DNA of 57,454 nucleotides from Deltaproteobacteria bacterium (GTDB lineage: Bacteria > Desulfobacterota > Dissulfuribacteria > Dissulfuribacterales > QOAL01): assembly GCA_015494395.1 (NCBI GenBank), contig WGBG01000160.1:1-57454 (forward strand), in the 5' to 3' direction. Of this stretch, positions 25,033 through 40,932 are shown piece after piece; position 1 is the stretch's first letter; the number at the start of each line of letters is the position of its first letter. The notes beneath the pieces were generated by a model. The model did no database searches and was not told where the DNA came from. It saw only the letters and a list, made by a program, of their open reading frames with translations. The position numbers and the translations under genes are program-made.

Positions 25033-25652
25033 GGGAGCCTGTCATATACTGTGGGAATAGGTTCAAACGATGCATCAAGCAGTGAGTCTACTGCCTCTGT
25101 TCTGCCCACTTCTGTCATTGCAACTGACAGGACGTTACCATTGGTGATATCAATGAGTTTTACCGTAATGGCAACAGAATCAATTCCCACTCCATAGGTC
25201 CCGGCCACAATGGAGCTTGCAGAGACCGCCTTTGCCGTCTCTACTGCATTCCTGCTCAGACCAAATTCACCTTCACCGGGGGCAAGGGCGACGGTGCCGG
25301 TCATCTTGGCCTCCCTTACCACGCCGCCTATTCTGAATATCTCTGCCGCAATGGCCTCTGCCATAACCCTTCCGAAACGTGAAGAACGTGACAGGTCATC
25401 TACATCTGCCAGGGTAGTGACTATGCAGGGGTATTCTGCAAGGGAGCCATCACGCATGTTCTGCTGTAGCTGAAGTGCAAGCCCCTGTGCCACATTGAAT
25501 ATCGTTGGATACATGGCAGAGTACACATGGGACCCCGGTTCATGTTCAGTAACAACAGAAGAGTTGGGGGCTGCATTAGACATGCAGCCCTGGCATAGTA
25601 TGGGTAATAGCAGAAGTGCAAATTTGAAAATATCTGTTTTTTGTTGCATCAA
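25029..25652 (-). CDS. FlgO-domain lipoprotein
   Basis: Lipobox CQGC; TTLADVDDL..SSRFGR, GEFGLSR, VAGTY. Confidence 0.8.
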   Translation of the reverse strand: MMQQKTDIFKFALLLLPILCQGCMSNAAPNSSVVTEHEPGSHVYSAMYPTIFNVAQGLALQLQQNMRDGSLAEYPCIVTTLADVDDLSRSSRFGRVMAEAIAAEIFRIGGVVREAKMTGTVALAPGEGEFGLSRNAVETAKAVSASSIVAGTYGVGIDSVAITVKLIDITNGNVLSVAMTEVGRTEAVDSLLDASFEPIPTVYDRLP

Positions 25653-25680
25653 AGGTTGATGTTCCCGTGCAGTTCTTAAA

Positions 25681-26520
25681 TCAGGAACCCTGGATTATTC
25701 TGACTTCAGTGGGTTCTCCAAATGCCTTGATAGGAATGGTTATATTTTTCTTGTCCATTTCCGGCGGGGCAGCGGATGGCCACAGCATGCTCCGCATGAA
25801 TTTGTTGTTGGGAATAATCTTCATTGCAGATGATGCTACCATGCCATTGCCGGTTGAGACAAGTCTTGCGTTAATAAAGACATAGTTTCCCTTAACTATG
25901 TAGGTTCCCACAAGAATGATGTTTGCTGATGTATGGTTTGCAATTTCGTCCAGCTCTCTTGAAAGGCTGTACTCCCCGAATTTTTTCTTGATAAGAATCG
26001 CGTCTGTTTTTCTTATTTCTACCACCTGGTATCCTGCCCGCTGCAGTTCACCCATGAGCTGTTCGGCAAGGTAACGGCCAAGGGGAGATGTGCGGTACAG
26101 ATAGTTAAGGTCAACAAAGGTGGAAACGCCTATCACCCCTTGAATTCCTGCATCTGCATTCATGTTTTCAATAAGCTGAATGGCAATATCGTGCACCTGT
26201 GCGTTAAACAGGGAGGCGTCATCCATGCTGTAAAAAGATGCTGGCTTTATGGGCTGAGCTGGCGGTGATGCCGTACTGTATTGAGGCATCTTTTTAGGTG
26301 GATGCTTAGGTGGATACGGCGTATCTGCATGCGAGGCATAATGTTCATTACATGTGCTGTCAGGCATTGCCGGATCTCCTGGCTGAACAGCCTGGTGAGC
26401 CGCCGGTGCCCCTGGATTGCCTGCCTGTGCGTTAACAGGCTGCCTCATGCAGCCGGTAAATATTAATGTGCAGAAAATAAACATGAAGCTGGTTGTTAGA
26501 CAAAAGAGTTTTCTTTTCAT
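25681..26520 (-). CDS. FlgO-domain lipoprotein with Pro-rich linker
   Basis: Lipobox FTGC; VSTFVDLN.L..TSPLGRYLAEQL, GEYSLSR, LVGTY, INARLV. Confidence 0.82.
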   Translation of the reverse strand: MKRKLFCLTTSFMFIFCTLIFTGCMRQPVNAQAGNPGAPAAHQAVQPGDPAMPDSTCNEHYASHADTPYPPKHPPKKMPQYSTASPPAQPIKPASFYSMDDASLFNAQVHDIAIQLIENMNADAGIQGVIGVSTFVDLNYLYRTSPLGRYLAEQLMGELQRAGYQVVEIRKTDAILIKKKFGEYSLSRELDEIANHTSANIILVGTYIVKGNYVFINARLVSTGNGMVASSAMKIIPNNKFMRSMLWPSAAPPEMDKKNITIPIKAFGEPTEVRIIQGS

Positions 26521-26567: not shown

Positions 26568-27026
26568 TTATCGCTGTTCGAACACTAAAGGCCCGTTAAA
26601 GGAAATGACTGGCGGGATTGGTCTGGCAGGAGCCTGCCCTCGGTCAACTATACCGTAAGTAACGTATGCGGGTACAGGGACCACTCTCTCTGTGTAATAG
26701 ACCTCTGTTCTTCTTGGGGCAACATCAGCTACACAGCCGGGACAGTGCACTGCTGAACATCCCCTGGGGTAACAGGCATATCCGCAGCAATTATTCGCAT
26801 AGCAACCGCAATTATATCCCCAGCCGGTCAGCGAGCCTATTATCCTGGCAGGGATTGCCAGCAGTGCGTCTGCTGCACTGCCAACCGGTCCGCATGCCGA
26901 GTTACATCCACAGGGATGTGCAATGACATATTCATTGCAGCAGCCCGCCCCTGCTTGTTGAACAAAGCCAAAACAGAACATGATGGTTATTAAGGCTGCA
27001 CAACCGTAACTCATAAGTGTTTTCAT
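26568..27026 (-). CDS. Secreted cysteine-rich protein
   Basis: RBS AAGGAGG before the ATG at 27026; signal peptide ending AGA; 13 Cys in the mature part. Confidence 0.7.
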   Translation of the reverse strand: MKTLMSYGCAALITIMFCFGFVQQAGAGCCNEYVIAHPCGCNSACGPVGSAADALLAIPARIIGSLTGWGYNCGCYANNCCGYACYPRGCSAVHCPGCVADVAPRRTEVYYTERVVPVPAYVTYGIVDRGQAPARPIPPVISFNGPLVFEQR

Positions 27027-27443
27027 TAAATTACCCTCCTTGGTTTTGAATTGAATTTGGCATTTCAAAGTTCAAATAATTAATTTACGATAGTATCCTT
27101 TTGCCCAATATATATTCTGTTTCGGCTCAGAAGATTTTTTTCTTAAAGAGTATTATTGCTGATTAACCTGCTCCCTGGATAGCAATATGTCTTTTCATGT
27201 GGACATTATCTCAAAAAATATGCCGTGGGTGCAGGCAACGGAAACTGGATGGAATCAACCCCGTTTTTATGACAGGGGCTTTTTGAGGTGGGAGAGAGAA
27301 ATCTTCGATATTTTAGAAGGTTAGGTTGGATAGATTGCTGGAAGGTGTTGAAAGGGATGAAAGTGACGGAGTTGTTTTGTTAGTGGGCAGGGGGGTAAAA
27401 TGGCAGGTGAGTGGGCAAGGTTTGCCCTGAAAAAGATACCAAC

Positions 27444-28175
27444 TCAACGTCCTGAAGTTGAGCACGCCGGGCATTCAGGGTCAGGCCATATTTCCAGCTC
27501 CTGGAACTTCATTGCAGCGAAGTCCATGATTAACATGCGTCCTTTAAGGGACATGTCCTGACCGGCAAGGAAACGTATGGCCTCTATTGCCTGCATGCTC
27601 CCCACAGCGCTGGTCACTCCCCCCATCACAGGGGTTTCTCCTGTTGATGGTGCGTTTGGAAACATGCATTCAAGGCACGGGGTTTCAGGGGAATGAAAAA
27701 CAGTTATGCGTCCCTCCATGCCCCAGACCGCCCCGTGAACCAAGGGAATATTTTTTTTTAGAGCCGCCCTGTTCAGGGCATAGCGGGCTTCAAAGTTATC
27801 AAGACAGTCAATGATGATATGTGAGTTTCCAAGAAGACTTTCAATATTCTCATGGGTTATTTTGTACTGTACTGTTTTGATTGAAATTTCTGAATTTATA
27901 GCTTCAAGGGCTTTTTGGGCAGATACAGTCTTTTCCAGGCCTATACTTTTTTCGTTATGAAGGAATTGCCTGTTAAGGTTGGTAATATCTACGGTATCAG
28001 TATCGCATATTGTCAGGTGTCCTACACCAGCCAGGGCAAGAGTCATTGCCACTGGGCAGCCGAGGCCTCCAGCCCCTGCTATGAATGCATGGGCTTTTGA
28101 GAGCCGTTCCTGGGTCTCCTTGCCCCATCCGTCAATGGCAAGCTGCCGTTTATAACGTCTGAAGTCTTGGGTCAT
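27444..28175 (-). CDS. ThiF/MoeB/HesA family E1-like adenylyltransferase
   Basis: YKRQ, GAGGLG, DTDTVDITNLNRQ, DCLDN, CLEC and CPAC Zn motifs; no rhodanese domain. Confidence 0.93.
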   Translation of the reverse strand: MTQDFRRYKRQLAIDGWGKETQERLSKAHAFIAGAGGLGCPVAMTLALAGVGHLTICDTDTVDITNLNRQFLHNEKSIGLEKTVSAQKALEAINSEISIKTVQYKITHENIESLLGNSHIIIDCLDNFEARYALNRAALKKNIPLVHGAVWGMEGRITVFHSPETPCLECMFPNAPSTGETPVMGGVTSAVGSMQAIEAIRFLAGQDMSLKGRMLIMDFAAMKFQELEIWPDPECPACSTSGR

Positions 28176-29632
28176 GGATTTGCTCTGCCTGTTAGATCAG
28201 GACATGTTCCATAAGAAAGCGATACTGGGCATATCCGTTCTGATGAATCTTGAGTATGCTTTTCAGTCCATTCCTTTGCCTTTGAGACTATGCTTTTTGT
28301 TATTTCCTGGGAAAGCCCTGTGTGCTGTTCAGGAAGAAGTACTTTTTCAATAGCTTCTCTTGGGAACAGATTGCTTATTTCAGACTCTTTCATCAGGATG
28401 TCAAGGTATGAGCCTTTTGATTCAGCAGCCTTCATGGCAGCCTGATAAATAAGGGTATGTGCCTTGTCCTTTCCTATCTTGCTGCCAAGAAAGAACATCA
28501 GGGCTTCACTGCAAATAAATGGGGCGGCAGCTTCAGTGTTTTTATTAACTCTTTCGGTGTGAATAATCAGATCTTCCAGGATATGTTTCATCAGTGAAAG
28601 CATGCAGCAGAAAAACATTGAAGAATCTGCAACCGTAACCCATTCCAGACGGACTGCCCGGTAGTCCCTTTCGTGTTCGTTTATAAGCCCGTCCATGCCG
28701 GACAATGCGTTTGCCTTTATAAGCCTTGCCAGTACTACAACCTGTTCACAGAGTTCAGGGTTGCGTTTGTGCGGCATGGTGCTTGACCCTATCTTGCCTG
28801 TATGAAAAGGTTCTTCCATCTCGCCAGTTTCACTTCTTGCTAGACACCTGATTTCATCAGCCATGCGTGCACAGGTGCCGGCGGCAATGGCAATTACGTT
28901 AAGGAATTCAGCTATGCGGTCTCTTGAGGCATGCCAGGCAGAGTAAGTGGCGTTAAGCCCGAGTTTTTTTGAAAATAACTTCAGGACTTCAAAACCCTTG
29001 TTCCCAAAAGCATCCATGGTGCCTACGCCCCCAAATAGTTGGCTTGAAAGCACACGGGGTTTGATCTCTTCAAATCTTTCTGCACTTCGCAGGAGTTCAT
29101 CAAGCCAGCCCGCCATTTTAAGGCCCATGGTCATGGGAAGCGCGTGCTGGGTATGGGTGCGGCCTATGGTGACCAACGAGGTGTACTGTTCTGCGAGCCT
29201 TGAAAGCTGTAATACCATGACGTGGATGTCCCGGTTTACTATCCCCAGTACATCCCGAATCTCAAGAGACTGGGCCGTGTCCTGGATATCCTGTGTAGTG
29301 GCGCCAAAGTGAATATATCTTCGAGACCGCTCTGGGCATACCTTTGAAAGAGCACCAAGAAGGGGCATGAGAGAGTGGCTGGTAATGGCAATCTGTTCCT
29401 TGATAAATTCAAGATCGAGCAGTGTAATCTTAGCGCTGTCTCGTATGTCCGCTGCTGCTGTTTCCGGAATGATGCCCAGTTCCGCCTCTGTCTCGGCAAG
29501 TGCGCTTTCCACATCAAGCCAGCGCTGGTAGCGGTACATGTCACAGAAAATTCTCCTTGCCTCAGGAGTTGAGTAGCCGCCTGAGTGGAAACGGGAATCA
29601 ACTATGTGGCTTCTTGGAGAGCAGGCGGTCAT
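28172..29632 (-). CDS. Adenylosuccinate lyase / PcaB-like fumarate-lyase superfamily enzyme (copy 2)
   Basis: YIHFGATTQD, GRTHTQHA, GSSTMPHKRNP, EHERD. Confidence 0.9.
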   Translation of the reverse strand: MTACSPRSHIVDSRFHSGGYSTPEARRIFCDMYRYQRWLDVESALAETEAELGIIPETAAADIRDSAKITLLDLEFIKEQIAITSHSLMPLLGALSKVCPERSRRYIHFGATTQDIQDTAQSLEIRDVLGIVNRDIHVMVLQLSRLAEQYTSLVTIGRTHTQHALPMTMGLKMAGWLDELLRSAERFEEIKPRVLSSQLFGGVGTMDAFGNKGFEVLKLFSKKLGLNATYSAWHASRDRIAEFLNVIAIAAGTCARMADEIRCLARSETGEMEEPFHTGKIGSSTMPHKRNPELCEQVVVLARLIKANALSGMDGLINEHERDYRAVRLEWVTVADSSMFFCCMLSLMKHILEDLIIHTERVNKNTEAAAPFICSEALMFFLGSKIGKDKAHTLIYQAAMKAAESKGSYLDILMKESEISNLFPREAIEKVLLPEQHTGLSQEITKSIVSKAKEWTEKHTQDSSERICPVSLSYGTCPDLTGRANP

Positions 29633-31047
29633 GTTGAGATTCTCCTGTGTTCCAGAGATGCTGGGTCTTTGGCACGCTGCCTTTTAACAGTATCCAGGAC
29701 CTTTGATACAATCGCCTCTGCCTGGCCAGTGTACAGTTCAGGTCTGTCAAGGGGCGCAAGGTCTTCTGCATTAAATATTGCTCCGGTCTCATGGTCTGCC
29801 AGCACAATATCCTTAAGTCTGCTCCCTGTTGAAACTGCCTTGTGGGCAAGCTCCTTTACCTTTGCCTGTGCATTGGTCCTGCCCATGGTTTCTGCAAGCC
29901 GAAACATGAGCCATTCACTTACCACCATGTCTGAATGTATGTGTAGATTTTCGTACATTTTCTCCGCGCGTACAGAAAGCCCTGATATGACTGTTTTTAT
30001 GTAATGGCTCAATGTGCCCGAGTAGATGCAGATCTGTGGCATGGCAAGCCATTCAGACCAGAGAGATCGTGGATCACGTTCGTGTTCGTGACACATGCTT
30101 TCCATAACAGTGGCTGAAAGCGCACGGATGTGCATGGATAGCGTAACCGCACGCTGACATATTACAGGGTTTTGCTTGTGTGGCATTGTTGAAGATGCAG
30201 CGCCATCTGGTGGCGGCTCAAAGAGTTCCCCTGTCTCTGTCTTTTGGAGCTGGAAAATTTCATTGGCAATCTTGCCAAGACTCATGGAGCTGATAGTAAG
30301 TGCAGATGCAGTTTCTGCCATACGGTCCCGGGCTGTATGCCATGAGGCGGGATCATGTTCAAGACCAAGCAGGCGCAGGGTTTCTTCAGCCACCTCAAAT
30401 GCCCTGGGGCCAAGGGCTGCCATGGTACCTGCTGCCCCGCCAAGCTGCCCATATTTCATGTTGTCAAATGCTGTCTTTAGCCGCTGGATATTACGCCTTG
30501 TCTCACCTGTCCAGACTGAGACCTTGAGGCCAAAGGTGTAGGGCAGGGCGTATTGTCCGTGGGTACGGCCTATCATGGGAGTGGATGAGTGTTCCCGGGC
30601 TAGTTTTATGCATACTGCCTCAATCTCACGGAGATCATCATAAATTATTGAGATGGCCTTTCTGATGCCGATCACAAGTGCGGTGTCCAGCACATCCTGG
30701 GTGGTGGCCCCGTGATGAACATACTGACCACTATCTCCGCACGCCTTTCTCAGGGCTGCAAGTACCGGTATAACTGAATTGCGGCTTTTTTTGTACCCTT
30801 GGCGTACAGTATCAAGGTCTATGCTGGATATATCAGCGTTTCGGTAAATGGTATCCGCTGCCTCTTTTGGGATTATTCCAAGCCTTCCCTGTGCTTGAGC
30901 CAGTGCAGATTCAAAATCAAGCCACCTCTGCATGATATTTTTTTCTTCAAAAATGTCACGCAGTTGTGGTGTGCTGAAAACGTCAGGGTTTATGTCAAAA
31001 TCTATTGGGTGAGATGGCATGGGATTAAAAATTATTTCATGCTCCAA
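29629..31047 (-). CDS. Adenylosuccinate lyase / PcaB-like fumarate-lyase superfamily enzyme (copy 1)
   Basis: YVHHGATTQD, GRTHGQYA, SSTMPHKQNP, EHERD. Confidence 0.9.
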   Translation of the reverse strand: MEHEIIFNPMPSHPIDFDINPDVFSTPQLRDIFEEKNIMQRWLDFESALAQAQGRLGIIPKEAADTIYRNADISSIDLDTVRQGYKKSRNSVIPVLAALRKACGDSGQYVHHGATTQDVLDTALVIGIRKAISIIYDDLREIEAVCIKLAREHSSTPMIGRTHGQYALPYTFGLKVSVWTGETRRNIQRLKTAFDNMKYGQLGGAAGTMAALGPRAFEVAEETLRLLGLEHDPASWHTARDRMAETASALTISSMSLGKIANEIFQLQKTETGELFEPPPDGAASSTMPHKQNPVICQRAVTLSMHIRALSATVMESMCHEHERDPRSLWSEWLAMPQICIYSGTLSHYIKTVISGLSVRAEKMYENLHIHSDMVVSEWLMFRLAETMGRTNAQAKVKELAHKAVSTGSRLKDIVLADHETGAIFNAEDLAPLDRPELYTGQAEAIVSKVLDTVKRQRAKDPASLEHRRIST

Positions 31048-32224
31048 GTGGGCCGTAGGGTTTTTCTCCTGGCATCAGTGGCGCCTCGGCACAAAGTTGA
31101 AGCGCTGCCTTCCTGGGACTGATTCCTGTACTTTTGCTGCGTTTGCAAACCCTGTAAACCATGTCCCGCATATGTTCGTCCACAAAATTAAGAACCTCCT
31201 GTTCAGTTGGGACCTTTGCCGGCCCGAATAGCCCTGCCATTGAAAGCGAGCCGCCGCAGCCTGCCACCATGTCCGGGACAAGAAGAATTCCGCGCTGGTG
31301 AAGTATCTCTTCTGCCTCAGGTGTAACAGCAAGATTTGCCCCGCACACCACAGCCCTTGCCCGCATGGTACGGGCCTCCTTTTCCGTGACGGTTCCCTCC
31401 ATGGCTGCAGGTATAAAAACATCACATTCAATTTCGTGGATCTTGCTGTTTTCAGCCAGCACGCCCCCGTAATCATCTACAAGTGAAATGAGTCCATGGC
31501 GGGAATACTTGAACAGTTTTTCCACATCAAGAGGGCTGTTTTCATATGTTTTGATCATCTTTTCCCTGTCGGAAACAGCAATGATCTTTATTCCCGCCCG
31601 GTTAAGGCACCAGATTGCACCGCTTGCAAGCCCTCCAAATCCCTGCACGGTTACAGTGGCTTTGCGGCACGGAATCCCCATGAAGTCCAGAGTGCCAAGA
31701 ACTGCGTAGCCAAGCCCTGCCCCAGCCCTGAAACTTGCAAGGGTGTTAAGGCCAGCGGGCCTTGAGAGGACTTTAAGCCGTTTTGCAAACTCCCTGTCTG
31801 AAAATCCCTGGGCCCTGGCAACTGCAATCTTTATTGAGGGAAGGCCGAACCGAGCAGCAATGGCATTCAGTTCTGCCATGGTGGTGTTCATGTCAGGGCC
31901 TACGGAATATCTTTCCAGCATGTAGGGGACAATGGCCCTGAAAAATCTCTCAAGTGCCTGATCCTTTCCCGGTGAGAGGGGATCATAGTCAATGCCGCTT
32001 TTTGCTCCGTCTGCACGTATCCCTGCTATGCGCATCTTGAGGGTCATATTGCGGGCAAGCCGGGTAATACTTTCTCTGGTCAGGCCCTTCTGCACCCTGA
32101 GTCCGCCTGCGCACAGCCGGTGGGTAAGAGAGTCTATCACCAGCCATCCCCTGAATCCTTCCACATGGTCAACATATTCCACTACAAGTTCAGGGGGAAC
32201 ATCATAGGCGCTGTGTCCTGACAT
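31037..32224 (-). CDS. Glu/Leu/Phe/Val dehydrogenase family protein
   Basis: GGLR, MTLK, GAKSGI, GPDMNT, VQGFG, DVFIPAA, GAN, PD. Confidence 0.88.
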   Translation of the reverse strand: MSGHSAYDVPPELVVEYVDHVEGFRGWLVIDSLTHRLCAGGLRVQKGLTRESITRLARNMTLKMRIAGIRADGAKSGIDYDPLSPGKDQALERFFRAIVPYMLERYSVGPDMNTTMAELNAIAARFGLPSIKIAVARAQGFSDREFAKRLKVLSRPAGLNTLASFRAGAGLGYAVLGTLDFMGIPCRKATVTVQGFGGLASGAIWCLNRAGIKIIAVSDREKMIKTYENSPLDVEKLFKYSRHGLISLVDDYGGVLAENSKIHEIECDVFIPAAMEGTVTEKEARTMRARAVVCGANLAVTPEAEEILHQRGILLVPDMVAGCGGSLSMAGLFGPAKVPTEQEVLNFVDEHMRDMVYRVCKRSKSTGISPRKAALQLCAEAPLMPGEKPYGPLGA

Positions 32225-32784
32225 CAGGAGCCGGCCTCTAGGATTATGGGCACTTCCCTTTGGGGATCACCCTCCATAAATGCTCGTATCATTGGCCTTG
32301 ATTCATCAACCAGGGAGATAATAAACATGAAGAGACCGGAGTCCCGGGCCAGGACTGTGTCCAGACGGGTAGGTTTGTCTCTTACAGGGTCATGCTCCCA
32401 GGGGACTATATGCATGTGATAGGTTCCCAAAACGGTCAGACCCTGCCGGTCACAAAGTTCATAGCTTGCCATGAGCTCTTCCGGGTCAGTAATCCAGCCA
32501 CGCTGTTCAAGGGGGGTGGTTGATGGCGTGGCATAACGGCCCATGACATCATCCATGTAGCTTTTGAGAGGCTCTACTGTCCTGGCATTTATCTTGAAGA
32601 TTATCACCTTGCGTACAATGGCAAGGTCATGGTGAATATCACCGGCAAGCATGCCATATGCACGTCGTACAGGGGTTTCCCCTTCAATGAAATCGCCTGC
32701 CAGCTTACGTCTGCAGTGGCTTTTGATTTCATCCCATAATGCTGCTGAAAGATTTATGGATTTAACCTGCGAGAGTTGCGCCAT
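32224..32784 (-). CDS. JAB/MPN (Mov34)-like metalloprotein, atypical
   Basis: YGMLAG, INAR, DPEEL, GTYHMH...PTRLD, FIISL, IRAF; adjacent to the Ubl gene. Confidence 0.75.
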   Translation of the reverse strand: MAQLSQVKSINLSAALWDEIKSHCRRKLAGDFIEGETPVRRAYGMLAGDIHHDLAIVRKVIIFKINARTVEPLKSYMDDVMGRYATPSTTPLEQRGWITDPEELMASYELCDRQGLTVLGTYHMHIVPWEHDPVRDKPTRLDTVLARDSGLFMFIISLVDESRPMIRAFMEGDPQREVPIILEAGS

Positions 32785-32818
32785 GTTTCAAATAGTCAGT
32801 TTCTAATGCCAACAAATG

Positions 32819-33082
32819 TTACCCCCCTGCAATGGGTATTATAAGGGTAACTTCGTCCTGTTCTGCCAGACTTACAGAGCCCCATGCCACCGGCTTTTCT
32901 CTTAACATACTGCCGTTTATGAAAACCGATATAAGTGCAGGTCTGTCAAAAAGCGTTTTCAGCCCGGGATGTGAGGCGACCAGCTCCTTCATGGCATCTT
33001 CAAGGTTGCTTCTTTCCACCTGAACTTCCCGTTTGCCCCCTGTATGTTTTCTCAGTGGAGAGGGTATTATTATTTGAGCCAT
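32819..33082 (-). CDS. Ubiquitin-like sulfur carrier (MoaD/ThiS/CysO-like)
   Basis: IPSPLRKHTGG, VFING, DEVTLIIPIAGG-stop. Confidence 0.9.
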   Translation of the reverse strand: MAQIIIPSPLRKHTGGKREVQVERSNLEDAMKELVASHPGLKTLFDRPALISVFINGSMLREKPVAWGSVSLAEQDEVTLIIPIAGG

Positions 33083-33121
33083 AGTTAAACCTGGGTAAGA
33101 ATGCGTACTTTGATAATGATT

Positions 33122-33985
33122 TTACTGGACAGAAGATGCTGCTTTTGCCAATGCTTCCGGGAGGAATTTAATGATGCTGTCAATCTGTGTTGCAGGGGTG
33201 GGGTTTGAAAGTTCTCCTGCCAGCCTGTTTGCCCTGCCGGCTATAAGGCATGCCTCAATATGGTTTTTACCGGCAAAAACCATTCCGCTTATCATGCCGG
33301 TTATCAGATCACCTGTGCCGCCTATCGGTTCCATGGTTTCAACACTGGGAGAGTCAATGGTATGCACTATTTTCCCGTTGTGGCAGACATAATCTGTTTT
33401 CCCCTTTACAAACATTGTAGGTGGGGCATTACCTGCTTCGTATGCCCTGCGTATAAGCTCTGGTGTATCACTTTCCATGTGAAATATAAAACCCCTGGTA
33501 AATGAAGGGTGATCGGCCTTTTCATCCGCCAGAAACGCCACTTCACCAAGGTCAGGGGTGAAGATATCGTAAAATTCCGCATGTCCTCCGGCCTTGGCAA
33601 CATACATGGAACCGGCATCTGCTATAAGTACCGGTTTGTTTTTCATGTTTTTTACGGTTTCAACCACCTTGTTGTTGAGTTTTATGTCCGGCATGACATA
33701 ATGAAGAGTCATAACATCCACTCCCATTTCAGGAAGATGCTTTGCAAGATGGTTATAGATTGCCTCGCTGCCCTGACGGGTTCCGATATCTCCTGCCACC
33801 ATGCCCACAGGTCTTTCAACACCAAAATGATCGCAGGCAATGCATGCGGCTGTCATCATTGCCTCATTGCCCCTGTTTATTGGCAGGGGATGACCGTCAA
33901 CGGTTATTCCATCTGGTGAATAGTCAACAGGGCCAATGGTTAGCGGCATTTTGTCTATGGGTACTGAACCCGCAAGTAAAAGCAT
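33122..33985 (-). CDS. Ribokinase-fold / YjeF C-terminal-like protein
   Basis: GDIG..GS, LIADAG.MY, FTPDLGE.AFLADE.A.HP, VKG.TD, GGTGD anion-hole motif. Confidence 0.8.
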   Translation of the reverse strand: MLLLAGSVPIDKMPLTIGPVDYSPDGITVDGHPLPINRGNEAMMTAACIACDHFGVERPVGMVAGDIGTRQGSEAIYNHLAKHLPEMGVDVMTLHYVMPDIKLNNKVVETVKNMKNKPVLIADAGSMYVAKAGGHAEFYDIFTPDLGEVAFLADEKADHPSFTRGFIFHMESDTPELIRRAYEAGNAPPTMFVKGKTDYVCHNGKIVHTIDSPSVETMEPIGGTGDLITGMISGMVFAGKNHIEACLIAGRANRLAGELSNPTPATQIDSIIKFLPEALAKAASSVQ

Positions 33986-33991
33986 TATGAG

Positions 33992-34546
33992 TTATACCCC
34001 TACAGCCTTTATAATTTCTTCTCTGGCAGTATTCAGCGAGTAAGCACATAGTGAGAAACCGACTTCACCGGGATCAGGGGCCTCTGCCAGGGTTTTGCCA
34101 AGCATGGAGGTGGCCAGGTAGGGCACATCCGGACATCCACCGCCTGATATATTAACAATTTTGCCCGTGCTCTTTTCAACTGTCATCTTCATGTTGGCTG
34201 CCCGTACCATAAGATAGTCCCCGAAATCTTTCTCCCTTACGAAGTGCAGGGGTTCCATGCCCTGGGCGGTAATGGGAACAACATCCATTGGTGTCATGTT
34301 TACTGAGTTAAGCAGTGCAGTAATCTCTGCCTCTGCCTCCATTGGAATCTCAACGCTGAGATCACACCCGGTCCTGTAGGACGGTGGAGGGCTCACTACC
34401 CTGATGGAGTATCCCTCATCCCTGAGGAGATCTTCTACTGCAATTACCGTTGTGGGATGAGCAAAGATAAGCAGTCCGCGGGTGACTTCATCAGGTTTTT
34501 GTGTCTTTTTCTGTTCTTTTTCTTTTTTTCGGAACCAACCAAACAT
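33992..34546 (-). CDS. DUF3343-domain protein
   Basis: VIAVE..L...G...RVVSPP...RTGCDL; C-terminal NISGGGCPDVPYL and LCAYSL; start set at MFGWF. Confidence 0.75.
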   Translation of the reverse strand: MFGWFRKKEKEQKKTQKPDEVTRGLLIFAHPTTVIAVEDLLRDEGYSIRVVSPPPSYRTGCDLSVEIPMEAEAEITALLNSVNMTPMDVVPITAQGMEPLHFVREKDFGDYLMVRAANMKMTVEKSTGKIVNISGGGCPDVPYLATSMLGKTLAEAPDPGEVGFSLCAYSLNTAREEIIKAVGV

Positions 34547-34644
34547 TTTTTTAATCCTGTGTAATCTTTTCTGCCCGTGCAGAGCAAAAGCATGTCTGCA
34601 TATTGAAAATTTAGTGAGTTGGCCATTAAAGGATGGCGTACTGA

Positions 34645-35712
34645 TTAGCGGCGGAGGCCTTGAGGCCGCCTGTAATTGAGAGCTATTATCAGGCACATGG
34701 CAAGTCCTGCAAGCACCGCAATTTTACCTCCAAATTCCGGTCCTGCTGACGTGGCACGTAAAGACCACCCTACTGCAATTGCTGCGCCTAATAACATGCC
34801 AAATGATGTAATTGCTGCATCTACATCCCCTTGTCCTGTTTTAATAATCTGTCTGAATGGGCAGCCGTCTATTATTGTAGAGGCCAGTCCCACAAGGACC
34901 ATGGCAAGAAAAGACCAGAAATGGTCAAGATGGGATGCAGGCTGTCCGTGAAGCCCGGGGTGAAACTGTCCGGTTACAAGGCTTACAATAAATGCTGAGA
35001 CAAGGGTGGCGATTACACCCATGAACAGGGTTTTTTCACCCACTAAAAAAAGATTTCTGATACCACCTGTAATGCACAGCCCTGATGCCTGTGCAAATCC
35101 TCCAATGATGAGTCCGGCGGCAATGGCAACTGTCCAGGGTGCATGAAGGGCAGCGGGGCCCTTCTGCCCAAAAACAATAAAAGTCGGTTTAAGGAAGAAG
35201 AACACCAGCAACAGAATTGCGAAGATGGTGAACAAGTAGCCGTTCATTGCAGGGAGATGTCCAGCCCTGTCAAGGGCTACTCCTGCACGAATGTAACGGG
35301 TTCCCAGCCACACACCTGCAACGAGCCCTGCAGTGGCTGCAACTGCAGTGAGGTCACCGGCAGCAAGGCGCAGAATCATCTTTATAGGGCAGCCTATAAA
35401 AACAGCACAGCCAAGAATTATAAAGAGTCCCAGGAAAAAACGAATCACCGGGGATGAACCACCGGTCACCCTGAACCGTTTTGTCTTTTTTGCAACAAGG
35501 AAAGAGCCAAGAACAAAACCTATGAGCTCAGGTCTGATATAGCTCATCCTGACTTCATTATGAAGCTTCATGGCTCCTGCAAGATTTTCCAGGAAACATG
35601 ACAGACATATGCCGGAATTTACAGGATTTCCCAGGTAGGATAGAAGAACGCTTCCCCCGCCTAACAGAAGCCCTGTGATAATGGCTATGTCAAATATTTT
35701 TTTAAGGCTCAC
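34645..35712 (-). CDS. yedE: YedE/YeeE family sulfur/selenium-compound transporter
   Basis: GNP.NSGICLSCF, YIRPE, FIGCP, GLCITGG, DGCPFRQ; about 10 TM segments. Confidence 0.88.
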   Translation of the reverse strand: MSLKKIFDIAIITGLLLGGGSVLLSYLGNPVNSGICLSCFLENLAGAMKLHNEVRMSYIRPELIGFVLGSFLVAKKTKRFRVTGGSSPVIRFFLGLFIILGCAVFIGCPIKMILRLAAGDLTAVAATAGLVAGVWLGTRYIRAGVALDRAGHLPAMNGYLFTIFAILLLVFFFLKPTFIVFGQKGPAALHAPWTVAIAAGLIIGGFAQASGLCITGGIRNLFLVGEKTLFMGVIATLVSAFIVSLVTGQFHPGLHGQPASHLDHFWSFLAMVLVGLASTIIDGCPFRQIIKTGQGDVDAAITSFGMLLGAAIAVGWSLRATSAGPEFGGKIAVLAGLAMCLIIALNYRRPQGLRR

Positions 35713-36249
35713 TTACTCACATCCTCCGGCAATTCGCCTTTGAAGGTAGTATATGTCATTTACTGCGGCTCTTATTTTAGGGTCCCCCGGCTTAAGTTTC
35801 CGTTCCCTGTTTATTTTTCCCCGGGATTTTGTGATAACGTCCATGATTTCCGTGCCTATGAAAAGCGGGGTGGTCTTGTCCACATAATCAGGATCAAGTT
35901 CCACAGCCTTTCTGTATGCATGAAGCGCATTGGTAAGGCTTCCCTGGGCGTATTCCAGCCGGGCAAGAAGCACATAACCATACGCATTATCACCATGTTT
36001 TGCCATAAGTGTCTTTAGCCTGTTCATGGCGGCGTCGTACTTGCCGGATTCTTTCAGGGCAATAATCTTGGCAAAGATACGGGCATTTTTTCTTTGAAGC
36101 TCAGCATAGTGCTGTTGAAGCTTCATGGCAGGATCAGTGGTATGTGCTGCTGAGCTTTTTGCATGAAGTTCATGGTCAATCAGCATCCAGCCAGTGGCAC
36201 CAATGACCACAACCAGTGCTGTCAGTACTATTCGTTGAAACCAGTCCAT
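35713..36249 (-). CDS. Membrane-anchored TPR protein with C-terminal GGCE
   Basis: N-terminal TM, TPR-like A...YRKAVELDPDY, ends YYLQRRIAGGCE. Confidence 0.75.
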   Translation of the reverse strand: MDWFQRIVLTALVVVIGATGWMLIDHELHAKSSAAHTTDPAMKLQQHYAELQRKNARIFAKIIALKESGKYDAAMNRLKTLMAKHGDNAYGYVLLARLEYAQGSLTNALHAYRKAVELDPDYVDKTTPLFIGTEIMDVITKSRGKINRERKLKPGDPKIRAAVNDIYYLQRRIAGGCE

Positions 36250-36259
36250 ACAGGAGTTC

Positions 36260-37255
36260 CTAAATCAGCCCGGCACCTTGAACAGGGCCGGAGGCCGCAT
36301 TGTCAAAGTAGAGGGTTCCAAGTTCCTGATCCCGATGTCTGTCCCTTATCATGCCGCTGATAGCCTTGGGGGTTGTGGTTCCCCACCAGTTATACTCTGC
36401 ATTGATTGATTCTGTCTGCCCTTCAAGCAGGGAGATATTGTAATCAAGGTTGTCCGAGATGTTATTCTCTCTGATTATAATATCCTTTACAGCGTACAGG
36501 ATAATGCCCTTGCCATTCCGGGTGATGTTGTTGTACCGGATAGACGCCTTGCCACTCTTTTTGGCATAGATACCAAAGAACTTGTTGTTGCTGATTTCGT
36601 TATGAAAAATTACAGGGCTGGTGCCACCGCCAAACAGGATCCCTCCTCCGTTTTCCGTGATGGTGTTATAAAGCATGGGAACTGATGATTTTATCTTCAG
36701 TGTCTTTACATTTTTCTGGCCAATGGCCACACCGTTATGGTGGAATGTGCAATGGCTGATAACCACCTGGGCAGAGTGGCAATGGACTGAAGTGTGTCCA
36801 TAGCTCAGTTCGCAAAACTCCATGACGTTGTTTCTGCTCCCGATGAAATTAACTGCCCCCCAGTCGGCTACAGACGGGTTATGCTCGGCGCTGGTGAATA
36901 CGATTGGTTTTTCAGGCAACCCCTGGGCTATGAGCCTTCCCCGTATAACAAGCTCTGCCCTGGGGAAGTGGTCGTTTTTGTCCTTGCTGAGTTTTTCGTT
37001 CCCGAACTCAGCAATTTTTGCAAAAGATATCTTGGAGCCGGGCATAATGATAAGTGTTGCCCCTGGCTCCACCCGTACATCACCTTTAAGCAGCAAGTCG
37101 CCCTGCCAGACTGTGTCTTTTTTAATGACAGAGAGTGCTGGAATTTCGGTTACTGCCAGGCAAACGGAGGTTGTAAGGGCGATTAATGTTGCAATGCTTA
37201 AACTAGTGAAAAGTGCTAGCGGGTAAAAGCGGGATAAGAGTTTTTTGTATATCAT
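36260..37255 (-). CDS. Secreted right-handed parallel beta-helix protein
   Basis: Signal peptide; DTVWQG, GATLIIMPG, PIVFTS, DWG, Asn-ladder repeats, NWWG. Confidence 0.82.
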   Translation of the reverse strand: MIYKKLLSRFYPLALFTSLSIATLIALTTSVCLAVTEIPALSVIKKDTVWQGDLLLKGDVRVEPGATLIIMPGSKISFAKIAEFGNEKLSKDKNDHFPRAELVIRGRLIAQGLPEKPIVFTSAEHNPSVADWGAVNFIGSRNNVMEFCELSYGHTSVHCHSAQVVISHCTFHHNGVAIGQKNVKTLKIKSSVPMLYNTITENGGGILFGGGTSPVIFHNEISNNKFFGIYAKKSGKASIRYNNITRNGKGIILYAVKDIIIRENNISDNLDYNISLLEGQTESINAEYNWWGTTTPKAISGMIRDRHRDQELGTLYFDNAASGPVQGAGLI

Positions 37256-37276
37256 AATGAGATCTCTTGGCGTGTC

Positions 37277-37783
37277 TTATTTGGAATCTGCTTTTTTACC
37301 TGACAGAAATGCAATTTCCTTTTCAATGCGTTTTGCATCCTCAGGAGATTTGGCAAGGGCCTTTGCACGGGTAAGTTCCGCTTTTGCCTTATCTTGCTGG
37401 TTAAGCTGGGATAAAGCCTGATATTTGTGTACGTGTACCATCATGTCATCCGGATTGATTGTGGCAGCACGATCAAAATATTCAAGAGCCTCTTTATATT
37501 TGCCCTGTCTGAACCTGATAAGCCCCATTTCATCAAGTGCATCAAAGTTGTTTTTATCCTTATCAAGCACTTGCTGAATGTTTGTCTCAGCTTCATCCAG
37601 TTTTCCAGTGGCAATATATGCAAGGGCAATTTTGTTTCTGGTGCCCATGTCGTCAGGGTTCATGTACAACTGCATTTTGTACTGAAGTATCTGGACCGAC
37701 GGGGGGAGTTTTGAAATATCTCCGTGCCCCAGTGCAACTGAGGGTGTGACAAACAGTAACATTATAAGTACAAAGGTGCGCAT
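37277..37783 (-). CDS. Secreted TPR protein
   Basis: Signal peptide (ALG-HGD), three TPR-like repeats. Confidence 0.8.
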   Translation of the reverse strand: MRTFVLIMLLFVTPSVALGHGDISKLPPSVQILQYKMQLYMNPDDMGTRNKIALAYIATGKLDEAETNIQQVLDKDKNNFDALDEMGLIRFRQGKYKEALEYFDRAATINPDDMMVHVHKYQALSQLNQQDKAKAELTRAKALAKSPEDAKRIEKEIAFLSGKKADSK

Positions 37784-37816
37784 TGGTTCTCTCTCTTTTG
37801 GAATTCAGAAGATGAT

Positions 37817-38743
37817 TCAGTTTTTCCTGTAAGGAGCCATGTTGCAGAGTTTGAGCTTTTCCCTGATGATGTCATACTCGCTGTCCTCAGCCTTGACGAA
37901 ACCTTCGGTAAGCATGCGTTTAAGGACATTAAGCACTTCACCCTCAACCAGGACTGTCTCGTCTTTTTTCAGGTTGAGCAGAATATCCAGGACCTGCCTT
38001 TGGACATCTTCAGGTACATGCGGCAGGGCGCCGATGGTGCAGTATGGCATGGGGACACTTTCTGCAATGATGTTAAAGTCGTTTTTGGTGATTCTGTGGT
38101 CATTTATCATGAGGTCATAATCAATTCGCGGTGCAGCTCCCACATCATACTTTCCAAAGTAAACGCCGTATATAACCTTTTCATGTTTGGCTGCCCCTGG
38201 AGGAATTGCATAAAAGGAGAGGTCTGTTTCAGGATCAAAGCCTGCTTCAAGCATCATGGCGTACTGTGCCATGTATCCAAACGGGGCAAGCGCCGGACCA
38301 AATATCATGCTCTTGCCCTTCATGTCCTGGATGGTCTTTATGCCGCTGCCTTTTCTTGAAATTATGGTGCCTGTGGATTTATGGCCGTTACGTCCCCTTT
38401 TGTCCACGGCAAGGAGCTTCAGGTTAAATCTTTCCTGCAGGATCAGGGCTACTATTGAATTTACATGCACAAGGTCAACCTTTTTGTCTCTGGCAAGGTC
38501 TTCAAATTCAAAAGTATTTGCAAGGACCATCTCCACGGGGCGTCCCAGTTTTTCACTCAGGTAGGCTGTAAGCGGTGCAAATCTTGCCTTTGAGAGCTCC
38601 CTGCTGTCACATATCATGTAACCAATGCGCAGAGGTGGCTGACTTGAAATGTTGGCAGAGTCATTTCCTTGTTCATTGCAGCCAGCAAGGCTGAAAACAA
38701 TGGAAGTGCAGAGCATTATGGAAAAAAGCTTCAAAAAATTCAT
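37817..38743 (-). CDS. PhnD/phosphonate-type periplasmic binding lipoprotein
   Basis: Lipobox LAGC; F.PLTAYLSEKLGRPV, SGIKTIQDMKGK, HEKVIYGV. Confidence 0.85.
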   Translation of the reverse strand: MNFLKLFSIMLCTSIVFSLAGCNEQGNDSANISSQPPLRIGYMICDSRELSKARFAPLTAYLSEKLGRPVEMVLANTFEFEDLARDKKVDLVHVNSIVALILQERFNLKLLAVDKRGRNGHKSTGTIISRKGSGIKTIQDMKGKSMIFGPALAPFGYMAQYAMMLEAGFDPETDLSFYAIPPGAAKHEKVIYGVYFGKYDVGAAPRIDYDLMINDHRITKNDFNIIAESVPMPYCTIGALPHVPEDVQRQVLDILLNLKKDETVLVEGEVLNVLKRMLTEGFVKAEDSEYDIIREKLKLCNMAPYRKN

Positions 38744-38840: not shown

Positions 38841-39467
38841 TCAGATCATGTTTCTCGTTTTCAGGAAATTCTTTATAACCTGTTCTCCGTTTTCCTTTTT
38901 GAACTTCTCAATAAGTATTTCTAATGTGTCATCATCAATCTTGTCGCTTAGCTTGTTGATTACCCTGTCTAGAATTGGAAAGCGATCAAGCACCTTGCGC
39001 GTGGTAATGGGCACTGCCAGGGAAGCCCCGGGTACCGGGCCTGATCCTTTTACAGGGCCCTTGTAACCGAAAGGTTTAAGAATAACCATGCCATACTGTT
39101 CCCTATAGTACTGTTTGACCAGTGAATATGTTTCGTCGGTGGAGCTTCCAACAAATTTTTTTGTGCCTTTTGTAACGGGTGATCCTATGTAACCGATGAA
39201 GATGTCTGCATCGCCTTTTTTTACCAGTTCAAAGCACTCTTCAGGGGTGGCCGCCTGTTTCAGCTCAATAGTGGTGCCTGTCCTTTCGTTAATAAAAACG
39301 GCAAGCATCTGCCCTAATATATTTTGATCTGTGGTGTCATAAATTGCCACATGAAGTACCCTGCCTACACAGCTAAAGGTATCGGATGGTTGTATCAGTT
39401 GGATAAGAGGCATGGTTAACATGAGGCATGTCAGGAGCAGTTTGAATCTGTTCATTAATTCCTCCAT
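38841..39467 (-). CDS. OpuAC/glycine-betaine-binding-like periplasmic protein (short)
   Basis: Signal peptide then CVGR; IL.QML..FINERTGT, DI.IGY, VK.YY.EQYG.V.LKPFG. Confidence 0.65.
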   Translation of the reverse strand: MEELMNRFKLLLTCLMLTMPLIQLIQPSDTFSCVGRVLHVAIYDTTDQNILGQMLAVFINERTGTTIELKQAATPEECFELVKKGDADIFIGYIGSPVTKGTKKFVGSSTDETYSLVKQYYREQYGMVILKPFGYKGPVKGSGPVPGASLAVPITTRKVLDRFPILDRVINKLSDKIDDDTLEILIEKFKKENGEQVIKNFLKTRNMI

Positions 39468-39552: not shown

Positions 39553-40932
39553 TTATATCACCCCTCTAAATTTCCACCACATGAGATCAAGCGGGAATAA
39601 AACCAGAATGGTTATAACGGCAAGAACAAGGCAGCATTTTAACGCTGGGGTAAATTTTTCGTCTGCAATTTGCATGCCTACTACTATGGGCGGGGCCTGG
39701 TATGGGAAAAATACCGTTGCAAAACCTACTACCTGAAGCATTATTATGTTCTCAATACTGAAGCCCGTAGCCCTGGCAAGTGGTTCGGAAAAAGGTGTAA
39801 AAACTGCTGGAATTCCGGGCAGGGTGGTAAAAATTCCTGTTGTTGCCGCGGCAAGGCTTACCGACATGAAATTTATGAAATTCTTGCCCGGCGCCAGGGG
39901 CAGGAATTTAATAAGCTCGCCAGCCAGAGCATGGCCAAGCCCTGATTTGTTGATCAGGGCACCCAGGCCAAGGATTCCTGCCACAAAGATAATAGATGCC
40001 CAGTTCATCTTTTCGTTAAACACCTTGGCAGGCACCACTGATATTCCAGGAAGCATGAGAAATACAGCTCCAGCCATAGCGATCCAGGCTGGAGAAATAT
40101 GGTGCAGGAAATCCGTTGCCCATAGTATCAGCATGACTATCAAAACAGTCGATAGCATCTTTTCCTTGGATGACAACGGGTTATTGTTTTTATAGGAATC
40201 CATCTCATTTTTCTCTGAGGGCGTGTCCGGAAAGAGCCATACAATTATGGCTGTGATGAGCAGAGCCTTTAAAAATCCCATAATGGGGAAGTGAAGCATC
40301 AAGTAGGGGCCGTAAAGCAGGGAAATGTGAAACTGGCTTTCTGTCATCCCTGCCAGGACCATGTTTGGAACATTTGCCGGAAGAATTGCAAAAGCCGGTA
40401 TGAATGAACCCAGGATTACCGCAAGTATTACACCAGTTCTGCCCCGGGTATTTTGGGAAAATCCAAAATGTTCTGCCATGGATGATGCTATGGGTGTCAA
40501 GAGAACGGCCCGGCCCATGGCAGACGGCATTACAAAGCTGAACATCACGCCACCTGCAACCAGCCCTGCAATGATACCACTGTATCTGCCGTGCAGGTTA
40601 TGGGCAATTATTCTTGCTACCCTCTTCCCAAGACCCGTGGTGTTGATTCCAATACCAAGTATCAGGCCGCCAAATATGAGCCATACTGCTGACGAGGTAA
40701 AACCTGAAAATATGGTTCCTGCCGGTGCAAGGGAGAGTAGCATACTTACAACGAAAAAGCATAGTGATGTCATAAACTCCGGGATAATGCCTGTTGCCCA
40801 GAAACAGATTGTGAGTACTGAGATGGCTGCAACCATGGTTTGGTGGAATGTAAGTATCTTGGGGGGGAGAAGGAGTAAGAGGGTAGACGATGCGATCACC
40901 AGTGCTATGACGGCATATTTGAATTTAAGCAT
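39553..40932 (-). CDS. SLC13/DASS family anion transporter
   Basis: WATG.IPE, FSGFTS, TGLGKR, MPSAMGR, LPANVPN, PYQAPP; about 12 TM segments. Confidence 0.88.
   Translation of the reverse strand: MLKFKYAVIALVIASSTLLLLLPPKILTFHQTMVAAISVLTICFWATGIIPEFMTSLCFFVVSMLLSLAPAGTIFSGFTSSAVWLIFGGLILGIGINTTGLGKRVARIIAHNLHGRYSGIIAGLVAGGVMFSFVMPSAMGRAVLLTPIASSMAEHFGFSQNTRGRTGVILAVILGSFIPAFAILPANVPNMVLAGMTESQFHISLLYGPYLMLHFPIMGFLKALLITAIIVWLFPDTPSEKNEMDSYKNNNPLSSKEKMLSTVLIVMLILWATDFLHHISPAWIAMAGAVFLMLPGISVVPAKVFNEKMNWASIIFVAGILGLGALINKSGLGHALAGELIKFLPLAPGKNFINFMSVSLAAATTGIFTTLPGIPAVFTPFSEPLARATGFSIENIIMLQVVGFATVFFPYQAPPIVVGMQIADEKFTPALKCCLVLAVITILVLFPLDLMWWKFRGVI

Follow-up and report, generated by a model that had tools for sequence, protein, structure and literature searches.

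Why would the genes for a ubiquitin-like protein (Ubl), an E1-type activating enzyme, and a JAB-type protein be packed together with genes for two lyases and an amino-acid dehydrogenase? This combination occurs in contig WGBG01000160.1 from a deltaproteobacterium (assembly GCA_015494395.1), of which we analyzed a stretch of 57,454 nucleotides (the window). A preliminary description of the window had reported six tightly packed open reading frames (ORFs) on the minus strand, at 27444-33082, and we found all six at that location, in the order that it gave. Few enzymes, just a handful, are known to accept sulfur from Ubl thiocarboxylates: ThiG, MoaE, the pyridoxal phosphate (PLP)-dependent sulfhydrylases, tRNA thiolases, and some enzymes that make natural products. 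In this module, the partners that stay constant are instead lyases of the aspartase/fumarase superfamily, an amino-acid dehydrogenase, and a new family of JAB proteins. Our tentative answer, which we would put at just under an even chance, is that the six genes are the core of a Ubl-thiocarboxylate pathway whose product is a small carboxylic acid that bears sulfur, is exported, and probably binds metal. (The chemistry is what we infer from the genes.)

In the order of the minus strand, the core encodes a ThiS/MoaD-type carrier whose C terminus is PIAGG (Ubl; 32819-33082, 87 amino acids, Pfam ThiS); a putative JAB/MPN+ metalloenzyme of a divergent kind, identified by its predicted fold, which we used as the family marker of the module (JAB; 32224-32784, 186 amino acids); an ELFV-family amino-acid dehydrogenase (GDH; 31037-32224, 395 amino acids, Pfam ELFV_dehydrog and its N domain); a lyase that resembles adenylosuccinate lyase and CMLE (ASL1; 29629-31047, 472 amino acids) and another that is related to XcbD (ASL2; 28172-29632, 486 amino acids), both with Pfam Lyase_1 and ADSL_C; and a MoeB/ThiF-type adenylyltransferase (E1; 27444-28175, 243 amino acids, Pfam ThiF). 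The Ubl and JAB genes are 34 nt apart. The last five genes had been described as overlapping, which is correct for JAB/GDH (1 nt), ASL1/ASL2 (4 nt), and ASL2/E1 (4 nt). At the GDH/ASL1 junction, the genes overlap (by 11 nt) only when ASL1 is taken to start at the listed TTG, and with the ATG 27 nt downstream there is a 16-nt gap. The true start is probably this ATG, at 31020, because the Salmonella ortholog (see below) begins at the matching residue. A terminator-like hairpin lies at 27463-27442, by the end of E1, which is the final gene; a scan of the sequence for promoters and terminators found no more sites than in shuffled sequence. The core is the distal end of a block of 15 genes on the same strand (27444-40932), with nine additional genes upstream (gaps of 0-98 nt).

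The usual acceptors are missing from the block, as had been claimed for the PLP sulfhydrylases, ThiG, and MoaE: we found no CysM/MetY, ThiG, or MoaE among its genes. Elsewhere, the same genome encodes CysK/M (contig C8) and MoaE (contig C122). The gene combination is more than chance, because orthologs of all six genes co-occur in Desulfobulbales-type genomes and in a genomic island of Salmonella.

The preliminary description would have failed if these genes did not stay together elsewhere. They are kept together, even across phyla: in Desulfobulbales-type loci, in the Salmonella island, and in variants from metagenomes. Scanning one genome per species for JAB gave 52 loci, labelled as Desulfobulbales, Thermodesulfobacteriota, or "Deltaproteobacteria," and in many of these the block is syntenic. 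We counted genes by tblastn with the window's proteins, considering for each gene the loci that have it or that have enough flanking sequence to show it (the thresholds may miss short or divergent genes). GDH is present in 41 of 50 loci, ASL1 in 38 of 46, Ubl in 31 of 51, ASL2 in 28 of 43, and E1 in 23 of 41. The 15 loci from cable bacteria account for the majority of the core genes that were missed.

When we compared ASL2 to plasmid records (tblastn), we found a match on a 473-kb record from Salmonella enterica (NZ_CP022016.1, our L081). The island (296000-334000) has all six core genes and a DASS-type permease, in an order that differs from the window's. By blastp, the Salmonella proteins are 42% (JAB), 41% (ASL2), 39% (ASL1), 38% (GDH), 32% (E1), and 39% (the permease) identical to those of the window. 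The Salmonella ASL1 is fused to a TrmO_N domain and the E1 carries a rhodanese domain. The Salmonella Ubl, which is annotated as MoaD/ThiS, has no blastp match at E ≤ 1e-3, and its C terminus is PIAGG. An adjoining module encodes a Peripla_BP_2 binding protein, a FecCD permease, an ATPase, and a KdgM porin, and the whole is bounded by integrase and AlpA genes. Just 1 of 72,556 plasmid records has the JAB gene, and it is this one. Although the record is labelled as a plasmid, it has cob genes and yeeO, which we take to be chromosomal in Salmonella. It may be a piece of the chromosome, with the module lying like an island between the integrase genes.

A scan of metagenomes gave 64 loci (some of which are the same contigs as the genome loci), and these include more variants. 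In two of them (L130 and L131), genes for NosD-like, YedE-family, and TPR proteins, which resemble the upstream part of the window's block, are divergent from JAB-GDH-ASL1. In L130, ASL2, a NicO-family gene, and binding proteins come next, while in L131, the edge of the contig falls within ASL1. L143 encodes an MFS transporter, an ECF sigma factor and its anti-sigma factor, GDH, a lyase like ASL2, and a methyltransferase, together with two JAB proteins (the special one and a canonical Prok-JAB) and a fusion of Ubl, E1, and rhodanese in one protein, the Ubl portion of which terminates in AIAGG. L139 has an aldolase, an AsnB-like enzyme, a 2-oxoglutarate (2OG) oxygenase, GDH, ASL2, JAB, and an ABC-2 exporter, and L144 has GDH-ASL2-JAB. 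Given these architectures, the smallest recurring unit is JAB, the dehydrogenase, and one lyase; Ubl and E1 are usual, and a transporter is always there. The preliminary description was right about the six genes but missed the block of 15 genes, this minimal unit, and the accompanying transporters, including a nickel-type one.

The features of Ubl and E1 are those of a sulfur carrier and its activating enzyme, as had been proposed. Ubl matches Pfam's ThiS (32.1 bits vs. a cut-off of 22.5) and has the free C-terminal Gly-Gly of a beta-grasp carrier: in 31 of 31 orthologs, AGG lies directly before the stop codon. Its weak NCBIfam matches are SAMP1 and archaeal MoaD. E1 matches Pfam's ThiF at 248 bits, has two CxxC pairs, and scores 207 bits on the model for SAMP-activating E1s. 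The rhodanese domains on the E1 orthologs from Salmonella and L143, and the fusion of Ubl to E1 in L143, both fit a carrier that is converted to a thiocarboxylate. Because Ubl already ends in GG, it can mature without JAB; the exception is the L143 fusion, which is accompanied by an additional JAB of the canonical kind. There, at L143:8840-11332, the special JAB and the Prok-JAB (PF14464) are side by side, next to the fusion protein. This arrangement implies that one of the paralogs releases the Ubl, whereas the other serves a separate purpose. The window's genome (G000) has two ThiF and two ThiS matches; the other pair, on contig C177 (L058:1444-3387), is a 74-amino-acid MoaD-like Ubl ending in GGG and a 265-amino-acid ThiF-type E1. 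The ORF whose C-terminal part precedes this second pair is, we assume, an aldehyde:ferredoxin oxidoreductase.

The JAB-like protein has no match in Pfam. Profile searches give weak matches to DSY2949, JAMM1, and AMSH-LP, and the top Foldseek matches of its AlphaFold2 model (pLDDT of 93) are a bacterial Ubl-deubiquitinase (8tyx_B, E = 1.6e-8), DSY2949, BRCC36, Rpn11, and JAMM1. In an alignment of 16 rows (A1), the invariant columns include H123 and H125 (the HxH), T139, and D142, which correspond to the metal-binding HxH...S/TxxD of JAB/MPN+ proteins, and the HxH is retained in the distant variants. (The loop within the motif is longer than what we take to be the canonical spacing.) Together, the invariant residues, the weak profile matches, and the fold matches of the model indicate a predicted JAB-fold protein of a divergent family. 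A HMMER search of 1.84 billion representative sequences found 93 clusters at E ≤ 0.001, of which 71 were at E ≤ 1e-10; the named members are from Salmonella isolates and from one metagenome-assembled genome of the Gammaproteobacteria. In a phylum-wide sample, 2 of 401 genomes have the JAB gene.

Are the two lyases just PurB or PcaB? They are 35% identical to each other, and the best model for both is NF006500 (543 bits for ASL2 and 410 for ASL1, with a cut-off of 626). Both are below the cut-offs for PurB (TIGR00928; 324.9 bits for ASL2 and 300.3 for ASL1 vs. 326.2), for PcaB (TIGR02426, 299 and 255 bits vs. 355.75; NF006554, 373 and 331 vs. 595), and for XcbD (NF052536; 439.8 for ASL2 and 393.4 for ASL1 vs. 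600). The preliminary description had called for a check for a separate housekeeping purB, and there is one, on contig C92, which scores 422.8 bits (same cut-off of 326.2). The genome also has an ArgH-like gene, on contig C140. In a quick IQ-TREE phylogeny (30 rows, some with long branches), ASL1 and the Salmonella ASL-TrmO fusion are in one clade (SH-aLRT support of 97), and ASL2 is in another with the lyases from Salmonella, L130, L139, and L142-L144 (support of 99). XcbD is the sister of the ASL2 clade (support of 88) and is the closest characterized relative in the tree; it is 35.6% identical to ASL2. Both types of PurB, ArgH, and XcbC lie outside both clades; XcbC groups with ArgH, unlike ASL1. 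ASL1 and ASL2 are not the housekeeping PurB. XcbD is described as joining cysteine to sulfoacrylate, which forms a C-S bond (PMC9457059).

In an alignment of 28 rows, the invariant residues of ASL2 are C4, H9, C30, C295, and C468-P469. The N-terminal cysteines and histidine are conserved, and the C-terminal CPx(n)C tail is specific to a lineage. We considered whether the terminal cysteines might bind an Fe-S cluster across the family, but neither the CPx(n)C tail nor C295 occurs in the ortholog from Salmonella, which weakens this idea. Of 41 related genomes, 8 have both lyases (G000, G004, G005, G009, G012, G013, G018, and G022); another genome (G026) has a single match, in the range of ASL1, at the end of a contig. 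On plasmids, the closest homologs of ASL2 (Streptomyces rimosus, at 45% identity, Cupriavidus, and Proteus) have no other genes from the block within about 8-9 kb. A homolog in Pantoea shares about 38-39% identity with ASL2 and ASL1. It is annotated as purB and lies on a plasmid of Pantoea piersonii (L080:8995-14402) with a GNAT acetyltransferase, an amino-acid ABC importer, and an amidohydrolase. This layout resembles the pathway for breakdown via S-(2-succino)cysteine lyase, so the purB label is probably wrong.

The dehydrogenase does not look like a glutamate dehydrogenase, as it scores just 118.8 bits on the GdhA model (cut-off of 750). The lysines of the catalytic type (GAK and MTxK) are kept in 7 distant rows, and the position that we take to be the lysine for the side chain of glutamate is alanine.

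The nine upstream genes are all on the minus strand. The block begins with a permease of the DASS/SLC13 family (39553..40932, Pfam Na_sulph_symp; found in 20 of 34 loci), followed by an OpuAC-like exported binding protein with a signal-like N terminus (38841..39467, 208 amino acids, Pfam OpuAC; 29 of 38 loci) and a PhnD-family periplasmic lipoprotein of the oxyanion-binding type (37817..38743, 166 bits on Pfam's Phosphonate-bd, lipobox LAGC; 30 of 39), whose best sequence match in the PDB is the arsenate-binding protein ArrX (44 bits). Next are an exported TPR protein with an N terminus like a signal peptide (37277..37783, 168 amino acids, Pfam TPR families; 29 of 40 loci), a NosD-like right-handed beta-helix protein, exported or membrane-anchored (36260..37255, Pfam Beta_helix and NosD; 32 of 42), and a membrane-anchored TPR protein (35713..36249, 178 amino acids, Pfam TPR; 32 of 43). 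A YedE-family membrane protein (34645..35712; 33 of 44 loci) belongs to the type named "putative selenium transporter" (TIGR04112, 392 bits vs. a cut-off of 200), a name that rests on comparative genomics rather than an assay; comparing the protein with solved chains revealed nothing similar. Then comes a DUF3343 (Se/S carrier-like) domain fused to an uncharacterized C-terminal domain (33992..34546, Pfam Se_S_carrier; 40 of 50 loci). The ORF listed for it starts with GTG and spans 33992-34696 (234 amino acids), which overlaps the end of YedE by 52 nt, but the gene probably starts at Met51 of that ORF, because orthologs begin nearby (with M-x-W-F-K/R-K-K). C61, C138, and C167 of this protein are invariant across 27 rows (alignment A2). 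Its AlphaFold2 model (pLDDT of 84) has no fold match in the PDB at E ≤ 0.001, only generic ACT/ferredoxin-like matches at about E = 0.01, and a sequence search against the PDB gave nothing useful. Last is a small-molecule kinase-like protein of the Carb_kinase / NAD(P)HX-dehydratase type (33122..33985, Pfam PF01256; 42 of 51 loci). Its neighbors in the Atlas are all Carb_kinase clusters of Thermodesulfobacteriota, and in the PDB it has a weak match to Nnr.

The two halves of the block are gained and lost together. Among the 41 relatives (family f1), the selenium-type YedE occurs in exactly those genomes that have the lyase pair or a partial match to it, and in one fragmentary genome (G006); by another tally, it shares its genomes with the lyase pair apart from G006 and G028. 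(These genomes are kin, so the pattern does not amount to a statistical test.) Across the relatives, the distribution of the block is patchy. The preliminary description also suggested a link to sulfur disproportionation, and we found none: the published YTD marker cluster involves a different YedE cluster, and the block is patchily distributed. That interpretation is partly supported, namely as regards co-conservation, the separate purB, the distinctness of the lyases, and the features of a carrier; its fumarate acceptor and its release of the product by JAB are conjectures. The block is also not a replacement for cysteine synthase, since CysK/M is over the cut-off in 36 of the 41 relatives, including those that hold the block. 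Full-text literature searches, which did not extend to supplements that might contain relevant gene lists, found no paper about this cluster.

The cable bacteria are the main departure from this pattern. In loci that are titled Electrothrix or Electronema, Ubl and E1 were seen in 0 of 15 (tblastn). JAB and GDH persist in eight of the Electrothrix loci, seven of which also retain ASL1, amid unrelated neighbors. Three genomes of cable bacteria had only one match to the ThiF family, at 33% identity. In Candidatus Electronema aureum (L037:9134-9975), three ORFs fill the place of Ubl, between the kinase-like gene and JAB; we assigned these by eye as a HicB-like/HicA-like pair and a diacylglycerol-kinase-like membrane protein.

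Given the gene families and their co-inheritance, the fusion of Ubl to E1, the rhodanese domains on orthologous E1s, and the kinship of ASL2 to XcbD, we propose that JAB and the lyases would thiolate a skeleton of the C4-dicarboxylate type, with sulfur from the Ubl thiocarboxylate. E1 would adenylate the C-terminal glycine of Ubl, and a persulfide donor would turn the adenylate into a thiocarboxylate. In other lineages this donor would be the rhodanese domain, while here it would probably be a relay of YedE and the three-cysteine DUF3343 protein. The dehydrogenase would interconvert an amino acid and a 2-oxo or imino acid, most simply of the aspartate/oxaloacetate family. JAB, with Ubl, might then pass sulfur to the oxo acid, as CxnF does, or else it might hydrolyze an amide between Ubl and the product, as Mec+ does with CysO-cysteine. 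The lyases would join sulfur or nitrogen to carbon across a double bond like that of fumarate (compare to XcbD or to S-(2-succino) lyase), and the DASS permease would transport the product, a di- or poly-carboxylate. The exported binding, NosD-like, and TPR proteins, along with the NicO/RcnA-type genes of several relatives, suggest that the product binds a thiophilic metal, as a thiol-type metallophore would.

Parts of this scheme have precedents. Mycobacterium makes cysteine via CysO-MoeZ-CysM-Mec+, and Wolinella makes methionine via HcyS/HcyF/HcyD-MetY. Like these systems, the module has a carrier of the ThiS/MoaD type that ends in GG, a MoeB-type E1 (fused to rhodanese in the Salmonella and L143 orthologs), and an adjoining JAB gene. 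Unlike them, the block has no PLP sulfhydrylase; its triad is accompanied by two lyases of the ASL family and an ELFV dehydrogenase, and its JAB is divergent. Thioquinolobactin (QbsCDE) and PDTC (PdtFGH) are thiocarboxylate siderophore systems with a Ubl/E1/JAB triad among uptake genes. Similarly, the Salmonella island has an ABC importer of the metal-chelate type and a porin, but the module has no AMP-ligase and no quinoline or pyridine enzymes. In the S-(2-succino)cysteine lyase pathway, an ASL-family enzyme acts on the C-S bond to a succinyl group; that pathway is catabolic and, unlike the module, is not known to involve a Ubl, E1, or JAB. For the JAB, the precedent is chuangxinmycin: an amino acid is converted to a 2-oxo acid and then sulfur is inserted by a JAMM protein with a Ubl thiocarboxylate (CxnE/CxnF/CxnB/CxnC), with CxnF and CxnE thionating the alpha-keto acid, and the E1 can come in trans, as may also hold in cable bacteria (PMC12087186). 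The module differs in having a dehydrogenase instead of the aminotransferase CxnB, and chuangxinmycin has no counterpart of the ASL lyases (we compared these by description only). For the lyases, the precedent is XcbC/XcbD of coenzyme M biosynthesis, a tandem pair from the aspartase/fumarase superfamily in which XcbD adds a thiol to an enoate (PMC9457059). Unlike the coenzyme M cluster, the block lacks XcbB, XcbE, and XcbA, and the sulfur donor for coenzyme M is free cysteine, not a Ubl.

Several observations weigh against our proposal. The module's substrate, product, and activity are predictions from its genes. By Pfam, the window's E1 is a ThiF domain with no rhodanese, so it does not bring its own persulfide donor. 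The DUF3343 protein, with its three cysteines, is a possible substitute, and the relay with YedE is our guess; the model that YedE matches is named for selenium rather than sulfur. GDH is missing from 8 loci that are otherwise complete (L008, L009, L010, L025, L028, L033, L039, and L040). In the cable bacteria, which keep JAB-GDH-ASL1 and have no orthologous Ubl or E1, the trio must be able to function either independently of this carrier or with one provided in trans, and Electronema keeps the upstream genes, including YedE and DUF3343, even though it lacks Ubl and E1. A predicted complex of ASL2 with Ubl (alignments A4 and A3) had a score of 0.00, which we list here although it counts neither way. 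As for uptake or export, the block in the window has binding proteins without an ABC permease or ATPase as a partner. As for metal, the importer beside the Salmonella genes (FecCD/Peripla_BP_2) is of the metal-chelate class, and at least six loci have a NicO/RcnA-type gene (Pfam NicO) between the OpuAC-like and TPR genes (L013, L014, L017, L021, L043, and L050), but most loci do not have NicO inside the block, and the window's own genome carries the homolog on another contig (C204), next to genes that we take, from the starts of their sequences, to be CbiMNQO-like. A more specific version of our proposal would have the module make a sulfur-rich ligand for nickel, such as a thiolated or dithiolene-type short-chain acid formed via the Ubl thiocarboxylate and sent out to the periplasm, where nickel would be delivered to it by NicO/RcnA together with the NosD-like, TPR, and binding proteins; the JAB-GDH-ASL1 trio of cable bacteria would then be on the route to their nickel bis(dithiolene) conductor. 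We view this as a long shot. In the sections that we covered, the papers on the nickel cofactor of cable bacteria name no biosynthetic genes (PMC11247825, PMC13534509).

Instead of building a product, the module might break one down: an organosulfur dicarboxylate (with an S-succinyl or mercaptosuccinyl group) would be imported by the binding proteins and the DASS permease, cleaved by the lyases, and deaminated, so that its sulfur and carbon are recovered. C-S lyases of the ASL family exist, the Pantoea homolog is clustered with an amino-acid importer, a GNAT, and an amidohydrolase, the DASS family carries dicarboxylates or sulfate, and the binding proteins suggest uptake. We still consider salvage unlikely, as an E1 that consumes ATP and a Ubl carrier have no obvious role in breakdown, and the variants carry exporters (ABC-2 or MFS) and biosynthetic enzymes (AsnB-like, 2OG oxygenase, and methyltransferases). 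Another scenario, which seems quite unlikely to us, is that the element is selenium: YedE would import it, the cysteines of DUF3343 would carry it, Ubl would form a selenocarboxylate, and the lyases would fix selenium on a C4 acid to give an organoselenium metabolite or a protected store of selenium for SelD. In its favor are YedE's score on TIGR04112 and, in family f1, the genomes that this YedE shares with the lyases. The organism does use selenocysteine: SelD (contig C68:53802-54728) has one in-frame TGA, as do 37 of the 39 SelD matches that were listed for the 41 genomes, so SelD is itself a selenoprotein. On the basis of comparative genomics, both DUF3343 and YedE have been proposed to be linked to selenium, and yet the same work reports no selenium-specific subfamily of DUF3343 (PMC5322559). 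SelD is present in 38 of the 41 relatives, and the block in about 9 or 10, so the use of selenocysteine does not require the block, and selenium use cannot discriminate which genomes have it. Also, the versions in Salmonella, L143, and L139 lack YedE and DUF3343, and the block does not include SelD, SelA, or selenocysteine lyase.

Alternatively, Ubl could be conjugated to proteins (perhaps the neighboring enzymes) without an E2, as for SAMP or TtuB, and be removed by JAB, in a regulatory or defense-type system. By fold, the JAB model is closest to a Ubl-deubiquitinase complex, and SAMP models are matched by E1 and, weakly, by Ubl. However, the Pfam scan of the 15 block proteins found no E2/UBC domain, which also separates the block from ubiquitination of the Bil/Bub type; the E1 orthologs are fused to rhodanese, which is typical for the formation of thiocarboxylates; and the constant partners are metabolic enzymes and transporters. 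Overall, we rate protein modification as very unlikely. It is hardly credible that the genes are just housekeeping genes that happen to be adjacent, with MoaD/MoeB for molybdopterin, PurB/PcaB, and glutamate dehydrogenase. ASL2 is only just below the PurB cut-off, and because the genome's ThiF and ThiS genes number just two each, Ubl and E1 could also serve MoaE. But there is a better purB elsewhere, the dehydrogenase is far below the cut-off for its model, and the block is patchy among relatives and moved as a set into the Salmonella island, so this explanation is largely refuted.

Both flanks of the block are unrelated to it, with FlgO-like lipoproteins and a radical-SAM gene on one side and polysaccharide genes on the other. 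Just downstream of E1, at 26568-27068 (minus strand), is a 166-amino-acid exported protein that is rich in cysteine (with the runs GCCNEY, CGCNSAC, and CCGYAC) and that has no match in Pfam or NCBIfam. It is probably outside the block, because among the loci it is found only in L005, a 94%-identical relative. Beyond it are two genes for FlgO-domain, lipoprotein-like proteins and a 220-amino-acid protein without a family (24370-26520, minus strand), an SPL-like radical-SAM gene (23302-24351), and a class-V aminotransferase (22096-23178). On the other side, divergent from the block, is a cluster for polysaccharide export and biosynthesis (41207-50921, plus strand), which encodes Wzz/GNVR, Poly_export, a sugar transferase, a B12-binding radical-SAM enzyme, WecG, and a GT2. 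Farther away is a DUF3482 GTPase that is paired with a DUF2868 protein (52822-55823, minus strand).

The module has been mobile enough to reach both Desulfobulbales of hydrothermal and sediment settings and a genomic island in Salmonella. If our proposal is true, then the module represents a new way of making C-S bonds, and its product would be an uncharacterized exported sulfur metabolite. This metabolite might be a thiol metallophore for sulfidic habitats, in which sulfides tie up nickel and cobalt, and the Salmonella island would be a candidate system for metal acquisition in an enteric bacterium. More broadly, about 90 representative clusters of unannotated JAB-like proteins would gain a function.

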